In this document: positions 7,883 through 13,089 of the stretch, piece after piece
How positions within the stretch are numbered: position 1 is the stretch's first letter
Layout of the letters: each line of letters opens with the position of its first letter
Virus record (IMG/VR): IMGVR_UViG_2531839006_000011
Coordinates: 1 to 13,089 of that record
Origin: a virus
Taxonomy: Duplodnaviria > Heunggongvirae > Uroviricota > Caudoviricetes
DNA length: 13,089 nt
Reading direction: 5' to 3' (one strand)
Program-made: the position numbers and the translations under genes
The notes under the pieces: model-generated
Database searches by the model: none
What the model was told of the DNA's origin: nothing
The model's input: the letters and a program-made list of their open reading frames with translations, nothing else

Positions 7883-8127
7883 AGATGAAAGAGCTGGTTC
7901 CCGGTCTGCTGAGCTGTCCCGGGGTACCGCCAGCCTGCCAGCGGAAGGCGGTGGACCTCGTTAACCGGTTTCGTCGCGGGGAGAGGAATTACCATGAACT
8001 GAAGGAAAAGGGATTCGGGTATATCAAGATTAATGTTGGTCCGGACTGGCGGTTACTGAGCAGGAACCGGGGACAAACCTGGGCGCTGTTGAGTCACGAG
8101 CGATACAACAATATGAGACTGAGGTAG
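7879..8127 (+). CDS. Hypothetical small protein (82 aa) with RelE/ParE-like C-terminal signature
   Basis: C-terminus WRLLSRNRGQTWALLSHERYNNM fits the RelE/ParE pattern of two beta strands ending in a His/Arg-x-Arg-x-Tyr region. The family call is by-eye inference only. Confidence 0.55.
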   Translation: MKMKELVPGLLSCPGVPPACQRKAVDLVNRFRRGERNYHELKEKGFGYIKINVGPDWRLLSRNRGQTWALLSHERYNNMRLR

Positions 8128-8519: not shown

Positions 8520-8737
8520 GCAAGCCAACCGACGAAGAAATAGTTCGGGTGTTGGAAGAACACGGGCGCTGTATGACTTACGTCGTGACCAACTGGCTTA
8601 GGGATAAATATCGCACACTCAAAACGGCATACGTTTTGCGTCGTCTAAAGAAACTGGAGTTCGACGGGAAAGTAAAGCGCGTTAACAGTTCTTATATAAG
8701 ACAAATTTGCTGGGAGGCAACCAGTGAGCGAGATTGA
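8516..8737 (+). CDS. Small basic protein, possible winged-helix DNA-binding protein (73 aa)
   Basis: C-terminal YVLRRLKKLEFDGKVKRV resembles a wHTH recognition helix plus wing. ATG at 8516 overlaps the upstream stop. Confidence 0.5.
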   Translation: MSKPTDEEIVRVLEEHGRCMTYVVTNWLRDKYRTLKTAYVLRRLKKLEFDGKVKRVNSSYIRQICWEATSERD

Positions 8738-9323
8738 TTATCAGGCGCTACGGGAACGTTATTCACCTAAGCCAGTACCTGAATGCTCTGTTTGTGGCGA
8801 GGAAATGTCAATACAGCGCATATCTGGAGCACATGTTGTTTATGCCTGTTCCGGTGAGGGTGATGACGGATATTTTAAGATAGGGCGTACTTTTGCAGAC
8901 GAACATTATGAAGAATCACGCGTAACAGTAGTTGATGATAGTGATCCCGATGTGATTGCACTACTGGACGAACTGGAGGCAGCAAAATCAAAACTCAACG
9001 AGCAGCGTGAATATTACGAGGGAGTAATCGCGGATGGGAGTAAGCGTATTGCAGAACTGGAAGCACGGGAAATAAAACCAGCCAAAGGCGAAGTTCTTGT
9101 CGTTGTATCTGGTTTTACTGGTTGCGGAAAAAGCGCCATTGCCGGGGAAATAGAAATCGCGATGAAGGCTATTGGTGTGCCGGTTCTATGGACTAATGGC
9201 GATGCGGAAAAGCGCATGACAGGAGCTGACTGGCTGACAGCGATTGAGATGTACAAACCAAATGTGCGCATCGTGGAAGTTAATGTGCCACGCGTCGCTG
9301 GCATTCGCACCAAAGGAGAGTGA
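8724..9323 (+). CDS. Ea22-like N-terminus / Cys-cluster / coiled-coil / C-terminal P-loop protein (199 aa, GTG start)
   Basis: GTG at 8724 with GGGAGG 6 nt upstream. N-terminus MSEIDYQALRE parallels the 8307 ORF; Cys cluster CSVCGEEM...YACSGEGDDGY; VIALLDELEAAKSKL; Walker A-like SGFTGCGKSA. Confidence 0.55.
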   Translation: MSEIDYQALRERYSPKPVPECSVCGEEMSIQRISGAHVVYACSGEGDDGYFKIGRTFADEHYEESRVTVVDDSDPDVIALLDELEAAKSKLNEQREYYEGVIADGSKRIAELEAREIKPAKGEVLVVVSGFTGCGKSAIAGEIEIAMKAIGVPVLWTNGDAEKRMTGADWLTAIEMYKPNVRIVEVNVPRVAGIRTKGE

Positions 9324-9324
9324 T

Positions 9325-9840
9325 ATGGCGTTAACACACCGCGAACTCTGTCAGATTGCGTACAAGTTCCTTAAGCGCAACGGGTTCAAGGTTTGTTTTC
9401 ATGACCGCTTTATAGCTGTAACCAGTACCGGAGAACAGCCAGATGCTATGGGATTCAGAAATTCAGCATCATGCCTGATAGAGGCGAAATGTTCTCGTGC
9501 TGACTTGTTGGCAGATAGAAAAAAGCGTTTTCGTAAAAATCCATCTCTTGGAATGGGCGACTGGCGATTCTTTATTAGTGAGCCGGGAATTATTTCAATT
9601 GAGGATTTACCACCTGGCTGGGGATTACTTCACGTTGTTAACGGAAGAGTACGGAAAGTACATGGGTGGCCCAGGGGTAATTGCTGTTGGGGTAATCCTG
9701 ACGATAAGCCATTTACTGGAAATAAGCAGGTTGAATGCGATTACATGTTATCTGCATTAAGGCGCATGGAGTTGAGAGGGCACCTTAATGAAATATATGA
9801 CGGTGTAATTGTTAATAAGAAAGAAGGAAACGCAGCATGA
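9325..9840 (+). CDS. PD-(D/E)xK nuclease-like protein, MmcB-like (171 aa)
   Basis: AAAGGAG SD before ATG 9325. Motifs GEQPDAMGF ... LIEAKCSRADLLADRKKRF fit a D...E-x-K nuclease core as in the MmcB/DUF1052 family (recollection). Confidence 0.6.
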   Translation: MALTHRELCQIAYKFLKRNGFKVCFHDRFIAVTSTGEQPDAMGFRNSASCLIEAKCSRADLLADRKKRFRKNPSLGMGDWRFFISEPGIISIEDLPPGWGLLHVVNGRVRKVHGWPRGNCCWGNPDDKPFTGNKQVECDYMLSALRRMELRGHLNEIYDGVIVNKKEGNAA

Positions 9841-9977
9841 TCACTATTACCAAAGAGCGACTGCTGACAATCCAGCAGTGGCGCGAAACATACGGACCTG
9901 GTAGCAACGTTGTATTGCCAGCAGAAGAAGCGGAAGAACTGGCACGAATTGCACTGGCATTGCTGGAAGCAGAACCG
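9837..9977 (+). repeat. About 141-bp direct repeat, copy 1 (5' module of a paralogous gene pair)
   Basis: Hand alignment to 10668-10808 gives 9 mismatches in 141 bp; similarity ends abruptly after the module. Confidence 0.8.
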
Positions 9978-10235
9978 CTGGTGCCCGTCATGTATAAAGG
10001 AATGAAACTGTTAACAAAAGAGGGGCTTGAGCTTATTCGTGACGGTATTGCTGAGGCTACAGGACTGGAAGCAATGTGTATGGCTGAGGCTTTGCTGTCT
10101 GGGGCGTCAGTGCCGTCAGTGCCAGAAGAAATGTATTGGCAGGATGCGCCTGTTGGAGGCAGTAGCAAAGCAGCTGCATACGCGACAGGCTGGAATGCCT
10201 GTCGCGCCGCAATGCTTCAGGGAAAAGGAAAGTGA
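9837..10235 (+). CDS. Hypothetical protein, paralog A of a shared N-terminal module (132 aa)
   Basis: ATGA overlap with the upstream gene; the first 47 aa are near-identical to the ORF at 10668 and the C-terminus is unrelated. Confidence 0.6.
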   Translation: MITITKERLLTIQQWRETYGPGSNVVLPAEEAEELARIALALLEAEPLVPVMYKGMKLLTKEGLELIRDGIAEATGLEAMCMAEALLSGASVPSVPEEMYWQDAPVGGSSKAAAYATGWNACRAAMLQGKGK

Positions 10236-10236
10236 T

Positions 10237-10458
10237 ATGGCTAACTCGTTACTTGAAACCTGCAACAACTGGCAGATTCAGAGGGCGGAGATTTTATCTC
10301 GCAATCCAGATATGGCAATGACAATTGATAATCTGGACACGCTAATTGAACGGACCGTGCGTTCTGCAATTGATATAGCACATCGAGTGGATTGGGATTT
10401 CAGAGAAGCGGAGCGGCTTGCTAAAGAGCAGGAGAAAGCAGCGGGTAAAGGAGACTGA
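10237..10458 (+). CDS. Hypothetical small protein (73 aa)
   Basis: ATG 10237 follows the upstream TGA (10233-10235) with AAGGA upstream; its stop abuts the next ATG at 10460. The track's longer 10027 start overlaps the upstream gene and was not used. Confidence 0.5.
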   Translation: MANSLLETCNNWQIQRAEILSRNPDMAMTIDNLDTLIERTVRSAIDIAHRVDWDFREAERLAKEQEKAAGKGD

Positions 10459-10459
10459 T

Positions 10460-10657
10460 ATGGATAAAAACACCACTGCTTACTGGAATCTGTCACTTGA
10501 TACCGAATGCCCAAAATGCGGTCACAATTTCGATCTGCTTTGTGATCCAGATTTCTGGGAATTTTCTGGAGCAAAACAGGCATGTGAAGAAATAAAAGGT
10601 TACGAAACATGCTGTCCAGAATGTAACCATGAATTTAAAACAGATTTTGTGTATTGA
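10460..10657 (+). CDS. Small zinc-ribbon-like protein (65 aa)
   Basis: Two Cys pairs, CPKCGHNF and CCPECNHEF, spaced as in a zinc ribbon; ATG at 10460. Confidence 0.55.
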   Translation: MDKNTTAYWNLSLDTECPKCGHNFDLLCDPDFWEFSGAKQACEEIKGYETCCPECNHEFKTDFVY

Positions 10658-10667
10658 GGCATAACAA

Positions 10668-10808
10668 ATGACCACTATAACCAAAGAGCGACTGCTGACA
10701 ATCAAGCAGTGGCGCGAAACATACGGACCGGGTAGCAACGTTGTACTGCCAGCAGAAGAAGCGGAAGAACTGGCACGGATTGTACTGGCATCGCTGGAAG
10801 CGGAACCG
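10668..10808 (+). repeat. About 141-bp direct repeat, copy 2
   Basis: See copy 1 at 9837-9977. Confidence 0.8.
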
Positions 10809-11081
10809 GTGGCGTGGATGTGTGATGACGAAGATGGTCGTGAATATAACGGTCATAACGAGTTTTCTTATGGAAGACGCGGGATTCCCCTTTACGCCGT
10901 CCCGCCAGCGCCGAATGGATTGGTTAAAGCCGTAGCTTTCTATGAGCAGGTTAAACGTGAAAATCCGCCAGTTGAAACGGGAGCATGGAAAGACGCCGTT
11001 GACTGGGTGCTTAAACAAGCTTGTCAGGCTGTAAACACTGGCATCAATGAAAGAAGAACAATTGAAGAAAATGATGATTGA
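10668..11081 (+). CDS. Hypothetical protein, paralog B of the shared N-terminal module (137 aa)
   Basis: ATG 10668 with GAGG about 8 nt upstream; N-terminus MTTITKERLLTIKQWRETYGPGSNVVLPAEEAEELARIVLASLEAEP differs at 4 of 47 positions from the 9837 ORF. Confidence 0.6.
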   Translation: MTTITKERLLTIKQWRETYGPGSNVVLPAEEAEELARIVLASLEAEPVAWMCDDEDGREYNGHNEFSYGRRGIPLYAVPPAPNGLVKAVAFYEQVKRENPPVETGAWKDAVDWVLKQACQAVNTGINERRTIEENDD

Positions 11082-11129
11082 GCCGGAAGCAGCAAAAAAG
11101 CGCATTGCAGAACTGGAGGAGCGCCGGTC

Positions 11130-11345
11130 ATGAGAAAAATCAGTGGAATGTTGAACCTGGAGAAGGCCAGGATGCAGTTGCGTGTTTTGTTATCAGGACC
11201 GGTTCCTGCGATCACTCCGATGTCGCATGCCGTGGCAATTAAAGTTGTGCCTGATGCTCCGGATGCGAGTGAGCGGAGGGTGGCTGAACTGGAACAGGCC
11301 TGCGCTGCCGCGGGCATTCGTATCAAAGGGGAACAAGTGAAATGA
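11130..11345 (+). CDS. Hypothetical small protein (71 aa)
   Basis: GGAGGA about 9 nt upstream of ATG 11130; its stop overlaps the next ATG (ATGA at 11342-11345). Confidence 0.45.
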   Translation: MRKISGMLNLEKARMQLRVLLSGPVPAITPMSHAVAIKVVPDAPDASERRVAELEQACAAAGIRIKGEQVK

Positions 11346-11563
11346 AACTGAAGATGCAGGCAATGGACGGCCCGGTGATTATAGAGAGTAGTGATGTGAC
11401 ACAGTTTTACCCTGACCATGAAAGTGGCGGGGAACTCACCGCTGTTGAGTACCTTGCTGACGGGGGAAGAATCACCGCGAGGGTGAGGCACTCTTTTTAT
11501 CAGGTTGCTGCGGCACTTGCCGGGGCATGGCGTGCGGATGATGCATCAAAAAGCGGTGGGTGA
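11342..11563 (+). CDS. Hypothetical small protein (73 aa)
   Basis: ATGA-coupled to the upstream ORF; last gene of the small-ORF train. Confidence 0.45.
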   Translation: MKLKMQAMDGPVIIESSDVTQFYPDHESGGELTAVEYLADGGRITARVRHSFYQVAAALAGAWRADDASKSGG

Positions 11564-11823
11564 GGACTGTGCCGGAATGATTGTCTGTTCCGAAGCTGCT
11601 GAACCGCGACATAAATTTTTTATGTTGCGGTGAAGCAGCCGGCAAACGAAGAGCGTCAGCGTATCAACAGTTAAGGAAAATATCTTCTGAAGCCGGACGC
11701 GACAGTCAGTCCGGTGGTGCTCGTGTGGTGAAGTGTTTAGCCTGCATCTTTGACAGGGTTCAGTTATAAGCATTTCGGAAACCGTTCCCCGGCGCAGTCT
11801 GCCGGGATTTAAGGAGTTTATTT
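11564..11823 (+). promoter_or_regulatory. Structured 260-bp intergenic region upstream of the Rep-like gene (inverted repeats, iteron-related 11-mer, strong SD)
   Basis: Inverted repeats CCGCGACATAAA / TTTATGTTGCGG (11604-11630), CCGGAC / GTCCGG (11693-11714) and CCCGGC / GCCGGG (11788-11806); TTCGGAAACCG at 11774-11784 recurs inside the downstream gene (12644-12654); AAGGAG before ATG 11824. The track ORF here (11581-11769) is rich in rare codons. Confidence 0.4.
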
Positions 11824-13089
11824 ATGGCGCTACCTGCAGAAAGCCTTATTGCGCATACGCTCAGAAAAATGAAGGCCAGCATGGCAGAGAAAGCCAGTCG
11901 TGAGGACGGGAGGATACGCAGTGGGCTGTTGTTTACCGGCAATGTTCACGATTCGTATCCCCGCAGGCTGTTGCTGGATACGCGCCTTTCTCCCCTTGAT
12001 AAAACTGCGTGGATGATGATTCGTCTGCATGCCCTGAATAATGAGGGCGCAGTATTTCCGACGTACGATGAACTGCAGTTACAACTGGCATCTCCCGGGT
12101 GCGGGAAGGCGTCCCGTGAAACAGTGAGCCGGGTGCTGACAATGCTGCGGCTTACGGGCTGGCTGAGTCTGTGTAAGCGGGTCAGGGATGAAAAAGGGCG
12201 GGTCCGGGGGAATATTTACGCCCTGCATGATGAGCCACTGACCTGCTGTGATGCAGAAAAGTTTGACCCACGATACCTGGATATGGTTCTGGATACTGTG
12301 AGCAGGAGCCGGAACAAGACAATCCGGCACACAGCCAGTGAAGTGCTCAGTGATATCAAAAATGAGCCCGGTATGCGGCATTACCACAGCCATATCACTC
12401 TGTTTGAATCGCGTATGGGGGCAGCACAGACACCTGGTCAGCTGGCGGCGCGTCAGCGGGTGAACCCGATGGTGAATGAAAACACAGGCAGAGAGAGTGG
12501 TTCGGATTCCGTACATACCCCTGCACCTGTCGTGCAGGTAACCGAACTCAGTGCTCCGTTAACCGAACTCAGTGAAAAACAGGAAATGAGCCCACTCAGT
12601 TCGGATTCCGTACCGCCTGAAAAATCAGTAACTTATCACTCGGTTCGGAAACCGAACAATTACGTACGTAATATCACACACAGTGTGATTAAAAATACGT
12701 ACGTATTGCCTGAGTCGGTGAAATCGCAAATCAGCACAGAAGACACGGACATGCTGACAAAACAACTGCAGGCGTTGCCGGAAGAACTGGCAGGTAGTGT
12801 GCTGAGCAGCCTGTCACAGATGCTCAGCAAAAACACGCTCCAGAATCCGGTTGGCTGGATGCTGGCTGTGATGAAACGTGCGCGTGAGGGAAGTTTTAAT
12901 ACGCCGGATATGTCCGTGCATGAATCCCGGTCGCCAGCCCGTGCACCATATCAGCCTGTGTACAACCGTGATGAACGTGAACGTCGTCGCAGGAAAGTGG
13001 CGTCACCTGAAACGGTGAGCAACATTGTCGCAGAATTCCGTGCCAGCCTGAAACGTGCAAATGCTGCCCGTCTGGCGGCGCGTGTTTGA
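11824..13089 (+). CDS. Winged-helix DNA-binding protein, candidate replication initiator (421 aa, complete; TGA at 13087-13089)
   Basis: N-terminal region LSPLDKTAWMMIRLHA...GKASRETVSRVLTMLRLTGWLS...GRVRGNIYALHDEP looks like a wHTH initiator/regulator domain; a central low-complexity linker is encoded by iteron-like DNA repeats; basic C-terminus. The replication role is inferred. Confidence 0.7.
   Translation: MALPAESLIAHTLRKMKASMAEKASREDGRIRSGLLFTGNVHDSYPRRLLLDTRLSPLDKTAWMMIRLHALNNEGAVFPTYDELQLQLASPGCGKASRETVSRVLTMLRLTGWLSLCKRVRDEKGRVRGNIYALHDEPLTCCDAEKFDPRYLDMVLDTVSRSRNKTIRHTASEVLSDIKNEPGMRHYHSHITLFESRMGAAQTPGQLAARQRVNPMVNENTGRESGSDSVHTPAPVVQVTELSAPLTELSEKQEMSPLSSDSVPPEKSVTYHSVRKPNNYVRNITHSVIKNTYVLPESVKSQISTEDTDMLTKQLQALPEELAGSVLSSLSQMLSKNTLQNPVGWMLAVMKRAREGSFNTPDMSVHESRSPARAPYQPVYNRDERERRRRKVASPETVSNIVAEFRASLKRANAARLAARV
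12496..12706. repeat. Iteron-like repeat cluster inside the Rep-like CDS (candidate origin or operator array)
   Basis: Exact 15-mer GTTCGGATTCCGTAC twice (12500-12514, 12599-12613); exact 13-mer ACCGAACTCAGTG twice (12541-12553, 12562-12574); GGTTCGG-AA-ACCGAAC at 12642-12657; TACGTACGTA twice (12661-12670, 12696-12705) flanking ATCACAC-aca-GTGTGAT (12673-12689). Confidence 0.5.

Follow-up and report, generated by a model that had tools for sequence, protein, structure and literature searches.

A predicted PD-(D/E)xK endonuclease of a sister family to the MmcB-like proteins, encoded in a cassette common to an integrating conjugative element and temperate phages

The gene and its setting in the conjugative element and in phages

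The window analysed here, a stretch of 13,089 nucleotides taken as a whole, corresponds to the left-hand portion of a SPI-7-type integrating conjugative element (ICE) of E. coli. Its genes follow the order integrase, ParA, SPI-7-type DnaB, ParB, DUF2786, DUF2857, ParE-like, a train of small open reading frames (ORFs) and the STY4528 replication protein, after which come a PFL_4669/AcaB-like gene and topoisomerase III. The gene of interest is an intact ORF of 171 aa on the plus strand, which runs from an ATG at 9325 to a TGA at 9838-9840 in both the sequence and its translation. A preliminary description of this DNA had placed a nuclease-like gene here on the strength of two motifs, and both are indeed found in the product, GEQPDAMGF at residues 36-44 and LIEAKCSRADLLADRKKRF at residues 51-69. 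The features around the gene are as follows.

8724 to 9323, plus strand: upstream gene of the same operon, Ead/Ea22-like, 199 aa (Pfam PF13935, E 3.5e-26)
9290 to 9977, plus strand: cassette with 96-98% DNA identity to P7 and Stx/Shigella phages (megablast against a phage collection)
9314 to 9318, plus strand: Shine-Dalgarno sequence AGGAG, read off the sequence, with the ATG 6 nt further on
9325 to 9840, plus strand: coding sequence of 171 aa, predicted PD-(D/E)xK endonuclease of a sister family to MmcB-like/DUF1052 proteins, orthologue of P7 Upf89.0
9837 to 10235, plus strand: next gene downstream, 132 aa, with a start codon that overlaps the stop codon of the nuclease gene

The stop codon of the upstream gene (9321-9323) lies two bases ahead of the nuclease ATG; on the other side, the start codon of the following gene (9837) shares the tetranucleotide ATGA with the nuclease stop codon. 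Given this overlap and the close upstream stop, the nuclease gene and its neighbours look translationally coupled. A promoter scan found no plus-strand promoter-like site within the small-ORF train, and the single plus-strand terminator-like match (10546-10559, about 700 nt 3' of the nuclease gene) is weak and no more than is found in shuffled sequences; the gene is therefore probably part of one long operon. A longer ORF proposed by the ORF finder, which begins with a TTG at 9244, was set aside, as every gene call, like the orthologues of P7 and Stx phages, gives 516 nt or 171 aa. Minus-strand ORFs that cross the gene (9014-9337 and 9812-10168) were dropped as mechanical products of ORF listing. 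Taken together, the data support a real gene under strong constraint.

In NZ_CP059907.1, PGAP splits the Ead/Ea22-like gene and the genes downstream into partial pseudogenes over positions 10725-11972, which correspond to about 8724-9971 of the window. Yet the ORFs are intact; the region is a mosaic, and these calls look like artefacts of the annotation.

We also record several observations on other parts of the window. The small-ORF train opens with a protein that carries a ParE-like toxin domain (7879-8127; PF24732, E 1.7e-19), and the annotation contains no obvious antitoxin gene next to it. At about position 7672, within the DUF2857 gene (7305-7778), the window has one G fewer than NZ_CP059907, which leaves an ORF of 157 aa where relatives have 192 aa; the missing G reflects a true frameshift or else an error of sequencing. 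On the minus strand at 1461-1510, in the gap that separates the integrase gene from parA, lies a 50-nt 3' part of a tRNA (...GGGGATTGAAAATCCCCGTGTCCTTGGTTCGATTCCGAGTCCGGGCACCA), which we take to be that of tRNA-Phe, with anticodon arm, T arm and acceptor end. RefSeq labels a 78-nt 'tRNA-Ser' at this locus, and neither ARAGORN nor Rfam called a tRNA in the window; the piece looks like the att repeat of the island and not a gene. Genes 9837-10235 and 10668-11081 encode proteins with near-identical N-termini of about 45 aa (M-x-TITKERLLTI-Q/K-QWRETYGPGSNVVLPAEEAEELARI) that diverge beyond this point, and the shared N-terminus is a duplicated module. The exact LexA box CTGT-N8-ACAG is absent from the window. 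The same pattern with one mismatch occurs 14 times against a mean of 4.7 in shuffles, none of 200 shuffles reaching 14, and this excess may be an effect of codon composition.

The stretch from 9290 to 9977 has close counterparts in phages. The match to P7 has 98.3% DNA identity over positions 592-1277 of a query taken from window positions 8700-10300, and Stx and Shigella phages show about 96-97% DNA identity to the cassette. In P7, the orthologue Upf89.0 belongs to an operon that contains a C1 repressor site. In Stx phages, the orthologue sits between an ead/Ea22-like gene and an EaA/DUF551 gene; in the ICE, the place of this last gene is taken by gene 9837-10235, whose start falls within the phage-shared stretch and whose 132-aa product gave no match in a Pfam search. 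The order of an Ead/Ea22-like gene followed by the nuclease gene is found in P7, in Stx phages and in a P22-like prophage. This prophage (L170, GCA_032670565.1) encodes a 100% identical protein 3' of erf and abc2, adjoining Lar. In lambdoid prophages, relatives with 66-67% identity occupy the nin region, where they either separate NinB from NinG or immediately precede RusA. Besides the ICE, the gene is thus found in the prophage loci L170 and L172-L175 in three settings: the ea region after erf/abc2, the NinB-NinG nin region, and the position upstream of RusA. The cassette appears to have been exchanged between the ICE and phages. More broadly, the evidence indicates that ICEs and phages draw on one pool of small early genes, which supplies both the small-ORF train of the ICE and the early regions of temperate phages.

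Across 139 neighbours on 76 viral contigs, we found no conserved partner gene of the kind of a methylase, an immunity protein or a helicase. The neighbours include DUF551 (9 of 139), Ead/Ea22 (4), dATP/dGTP pyrophosphohydrolase (3) and C5 methylase (3), and more rarely helicases, NinG, NinB, SSB and YbcO. A restriction-modification or toxin-immunity reading was set aside, since no conserved partner appears among the 139 neighbours. What these settings have in common is that the gene belongs to early operons of DNA metabolism in temperate mobile elements, in many cases with recombination functions nearby.

Family size, residue conservation and predicted fold

The protein is one of a large family, so far unnamed, that mobile elements carry. 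Its close homologues (n=316) come from Enterobacterales and every one of them is named "hypothetical"; public cluster names are likewise all 'hypothetical', bar one 'YraN family' label. The identical 171-aa protein is indexed in 1425 assembly-collection blocks. An exhaustive profile search over 1.84 billion cluster representatives recovered 3225 clusters at 50% identity with E<=1e-3, among them 2448 with E<=1e-10. Some long relatives contain fusions to TniB, DUF551 or dATP/dGTP pyrophosphohydrolase domains; these look like read-throughs of neighbouring genes and were left aside as uninformative on function.

Conservation was assessed in an alignment of 96 representatives that are 32-57% identical to the window protein. 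The conserved parts of the gene are listed below.

9430 to 9456, plus strand: motif I, GEQPDAMGF, residues 36-44, with E37 and, where strand beta-2 begins, the predicted catalytic Asp D40
9475 to 9531, plus strand: motif II, LIEAKCSRADLLADRKKRF, residues 51-69, with the predicted catalytic E53-x-K55 at the end of strand beta-3
9556 to 9639, plus strand: second half of the core, residues 78-105, with G78-D-W-R81-F in strand beta-4 and the strand P96-x-G-W99-G-L-L
9724 to 9774, plus strand: C-terminal helix, residues 134-150 in the AF2 model, with E137, R146 and R147

In motif I, D40 is kept in all 96 representatives, E37 in 94 and P39 in 92. In motif II, D60 is likewise present in 96 of 96, while E53, K55, D64 and K67 are each present in 95; the helix SRxDFxxDxK that follows E53-x-K55 is common to MmcB-like proteins. 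Residue R70 is kept in 95/96 and H5 in 94/96. The second half of the core is similarly constrained (G78 and R81 96/96, L101 95/96, W99 94/96), as is the C-terminal helix (E137 94/96, R146 and R147 each 87/96), which is likely to be a DNA-binding or dimer element. A single representative, P0154, is without E53, and it is without K55 as well. A D-x12-E-x-K arrangement could arise by chance in one protein; chance is ruled out here because the residues are conserved across relatives. The preliminary description had made its proposal depend on such conservation among homologues, and the joint retention of D40, E53 and K55 has the form of a predicted active site.

An AlphaFold2 (AF2) model computed from 45 homologues has a mean pLDDT of 87.1 and a pTM of 0.81. 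Its elements are a helix at residues 5-18, strands at 22-26, 41-45 and 48-54, a helix at 58-64 and a strand at 80-85, which in the model form the alpha-beta-beta-beta-alpha-beta core of PD-(D/E)xK nucleases. D40 opens strand 2 and E53-x-K55 closes strand 3. As judged by positions along the predicted secondary structure, the data support a placement of D40, E53 and K55, together with the family-specific E37 and H5, at the metal-binding or catalytic positions of the fold.

A Foldseek search of the PDB with this model returned 3DNX as the sole match with E<=1e-3 (E 2.3e-5, probability 1.00, TM 0.57/0.65). The alignment spans 172 columns, essentially the full length, with 23% identity. Weaker matches (E 0.02-0.6) are mostly to other PD-(D/E)xK proteins and include AF1548, Hjc, the R2 retrotransposon endonuclease domain, HincII, XisH, Bax1, Can2 and NucS. 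A Foldseek search of predicted viral structures ranked several phage entries among its best matches (E 7e-7 to 4.5e-4) that bear the name 'MmcB family DNA repair protein'. Fold and catalytic motif place the protein in the PD-(D/E)xK superfamily, with a predicted cleavage activity. The suggestion in the preliminary description that the D...E-x-K arrangement reflects a restriction-endonuclease-like fold is thus borne out by the conserved residues, the AF2 core and PDB matches that are mostly PD-(D/E)xK proteins.

Relationship to the MmcB-like and Hjc families

Searches with the single window protein gave no match to Pfam or NCBIfam even at E<=10, no family among the PADLOC defence models at E<=1, and nothing significant among PDB sequences. 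Routine annotation would miss the nuclease assignment, the signal for which comes only from family profiles and the predicted structure. The protein does match two phage families of unknown function, PHROG 9263 (E 8.4e-123, residues 3-171) and PHROG 631 (E 1.8e-94, residues 1-170), and more weakly a further PHROG labelled "DNA repair protein". A profile built from the close homologues alone reached 3DNX only at E 0.57, so that the wider profile from the exhaustive search was required. With this broad family profile, 3DNX is retrieved at E 1.4e-5 and Hjc (1HH1) at E 0.046.

The 3DNX sequence segment in turn retrieves entries of PF06319 and of the 'MmcB family DNA repair protein'. Profile-profile comparison with hhalign aligned the family with N-terminal MmcB-like fragments at 96.7% probability (E 4e-10) and with a full-length MmcB-like set, consisting of 77 ORFs extracted from Rhodobacterales genomes, at 98.2% probability (E 3.8e-14) over 98 columns and query residues 8-116. 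The alignment keeps the register of D40, E53-x-K55, the SRxDFxxDxK helix, the D-x-R-F strand and the LP..G-L-L strand. In it, D40 is aligned with the Asp of the MmcB-like RVDVM motif, and motif II with the IECKSSRADFxSDxK of 3DNX and MmcB-like proteins. The second half of the core (residues 78-105) is aligned with the CDRFFWAV ... LP..TGLII of MmcB-like proteins. The data thus support homology between this family and the MmcB-like proteins over residues 8-116.

Scans of the 96 individual members against Pfam gave sub-threshold matches to Hjc (PF01870) in 56/96 and to MmcB-like (PF06319) in 30/96. The best member E-values, 1.3e-4 for PF01870 and 2.9e-4 for PF06319, are weak and sub-threshold, and the two members listed individually scored 16.9 and 17.7 bits against the PF01870 cut-off of 21.1. 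We rank MmcB-like above Hjc on two bases, the Foldseek search of the PDB and the broad-profile search. The protein falls short of the Hjc threshold and has no full-length Hjc-like fold; nor does it reach the curated threshold of the PF06319 and NCBIfam MmcB models.

The label 'MmcB-like' given in the preliminary description therefore needs to be narrowed. A profile match does emerge once family profiles are used, as 3DNX and the hhalign result indicate, and the relationship to MmcB-like proteins stands; membership in PF06319 does not. Since the single-sequence Pfam and NCBIfam searches are empty while profiles and structure link the protein to MmcB-like proteins, we place it in an MmcB-like sister family that lies outside PF06319 by the curated threshold. 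PF06319/DUF1052 and 3DNX have been assigned to the PD-(D/E)XK superfamily as relatives of archaeal Holliday-junction resolvases (PMC1189080, PMC3424549), and our family and MmcB-like/DUF1052 both lie within this nuclease group. The signature of our family is H5, G-E37-x-P-D40, G76-M-G78-D-W-R81, P96-x-G-W99-G-L-L, E137 and R146-R147, and it is at present represented solely by PHROG clusters.

Proposed function and comparison with known nucleases

We consider it probable that the protein is a metal-dependent DNA endonuclease that recognises structure or damage and processes the replication or recombination intermediates of its own element, a role that we infer. In the proposed mechanism, D40 and E53, possibly with E37, would bind Mg2+ or Mn2+, and K55 would activate or stabilise the attacking water, whereupon the DNA would be cut. 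The basic residues R58, K67, R70, R81, R146 and R147 would contact DNA. The enzyme would recognise the structure of the DNA or damage to it, and not a sequence, and would act on branched or damaged intermediates of the element after excision or induction. Three features suggest recognition of structure or damage: the protein is a bare core to which no recognition domain is attached, its gene lacks a fixed methylase or immunity partner, and the neighbours in relatives include recombination genes (erf/abc2, NinB, NinG, RusA). Both the nuclease activity and the substrate are predictions from homology. The preliminary description had left open whether such a nuclease would serve replication and recombination or act on competing DNA, and the gene context favours the former. 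One point speaks against the enzyme being simply a redundant resolvase, namely that the relatives in nin regions adjoin a dedicated junction nuclease, NinG or RusA.

A possible but unlikely alternative is that the protein does the work of MmcB itself. It would then be a lesion-specific repair nuclease that acts early after SOS-type induction and incises around interstrand crosslinks or bulky adducts, which would allow a damaged phage or ICE genome to be replicated. Temperate elements are typically induced by DNA damage, and the gene lies in their early operons. MmcB-like proteins are also the closest family by fold and profile, and Caulobacter MmcB, described as an SOS-regulated PD-(D/E)XK endonuclease (PMC9578287), confers protection from mitomycin C and cisplatin (PMC9578287; bioRxiv 10.1101/2022.06.10.495655). 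However, identity to MmcB-like proteins reaches only about 25%, neither the Pfam nor the NCBIfam model is matched, the window holds no exact LexA box, and no translesion-polymerase partner is encoded nearby. Moreover, sister families within the PD-(D/E)xK superfamily often shift in function. If MmcB-type repair were true, it would link the DNA-damage induction of mobile elements to repair that they carry themselves.

A more speculative thought, and one we rate as rather unlikely, is that this protein is the first example of a mobile-element-specific nuclease family, one of more than 3000 clusters at 50% identity for which neither Pfam nor NCBIfam has a model, and that its task is neither junction resolution nor classical repair. 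In one version, an early 'self-repair' nuclease would act on the genome of its own element, unhooking crosslinks or adducts following the inducing damage; in another, the protein would have a new anti-defence activity. Self-repair or anti-defence would explain why an identical cassette moves among ICEs, lambdoid and P22-like phages and P7.

We find it distinctly improbable that the protein is a weapon that degrades the DNA of the host or of competing elements, in superinfection exclusion, defence or anti-defence. Restriction and defence systems commonly use a PD-(D/E)xK domain as effector, restriction enzymes and Can2 occur among the weak fold matches, and the gene sits amid variable accessory genes of phages and ICEs with Lar restriction-alleviation genes and methylases as occasional neighbours. 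Against this, the PADLOC models are unmatched, and the neighbourhood offers no conserved methylase, immunity or sensor partner, the C5 methylase being present in just 3 of 139. The C1 repressor site of the P7 operon implies that the gene would be silent in the lysogen, and in the AF2 model the protein is a bare 171-aa core without a target-recognition domain.

Very improbable is a non-catalytic DNA-binding protein that has kept the nuclease fold, for example a regulator, as is thought for XisH-type proteins. Inactive derivatives of PD-(D/E)xK enzymes exist, XisH-family structures appear among the weak fold matches, and P0154 has lost E53 and K55, but D40, E53 and K55 are retained in 95-96 of the 96 representatives, the pattern expected of an active enzyme. 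Finally, the notion that the motif arose by chance in an ORF that is spurious or in decay has practically no likelihood left: PGAP does place a 179-nt 'frameshifted' pseudogene at this locus in NZ_CP059907, but the DNA of window 9300-9900 is identical there, the ORF is full length relative to P7 Upf89.0 and Stx-phage gp71 (both 516 nt), and thousands of family members with strong residue conservation refute it.

Our preferred reading, an endonuclease that would process the element's own intermediates, provides a testable function and named active-site residues for a protein so far called "hypothetical" or a pseudogene. This protein reaches across thousands of Enterobacterales genomes, Stx phages, P7 and SPI-7-type islands. 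The gain lies in the annotation of a widespread "hypothetical" protein; the enzyme superfamily is already well known, and the biological role is the inferred part.

Among the named systems, NinG/Rap and RusA are functional analogues that occur in the same early recombination neighbourhoods of lambdoid phages. They are small enzymes with predicted or known structure-specificity, and they co-occur with the family described here and are not replaced by it. In Pfam searches with the window protein and the 96 members, no match relates them to NinG or RusA by sequence.

The Hjc (PF01870; 1HH1, 2EO0) and AHJR-like enzymes have the same minimal PD-(D/E)xK core, with a nearly equal spacing from D to ExK. 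In contrast, the Glu of Hjc helix 1 is only partly conserved in our family, where position 7 is E or D in 65/96. The fold match is weaker (TM 0.28-0.36), the C-terminal half differs, and relatives in our family adjoin a separate junction nuclease, NinG or RusA.

The MmcB-like/DUF1052 proteins (PF06319, COG5321), which include 3DNX (Silicibacter pomeroyi SPO1766) and Caulobacter crescentus MmcB, share the same fold over nearly the whole length and are of similar size (about 150-170 aa). Common to both are the D ... ExK arrangement, the SRxDFxxDxK helix after strand 3, the (G/C)D-x-R-F strand 4 and the Arg-Arg of the C-terminal helix, whereas H5, E37-x-P, G76-M-G78, W99-G-L-L and E137 are invariant residues of our family's own. 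The carriers differ as well, with Enterobacterales phages and ICEs and many viral contigs on one side and, on the other, MmcB-like genes that we retrieved from Rhodobacterales, in a family described as mostly alphaproteobacterial (PMC3424549). Caulobacter MmcB is described as SOS-regulated; the window is devoid of the exact LexA box, and the gene is probably read as part of a long operon.

The nearest counterparts are P7 Upf89.0 and the Stx-phage protein, which are orthologues with 96-98% DNA identity, equal length and the same flanking genes. They, like PHROGs 9263 and 631, are without functional annotation. Between these orthologues and the window protein there is no difference at the protein level; only the carrier differs, a phage in the one case and a SPI-7-type ICE in the other.
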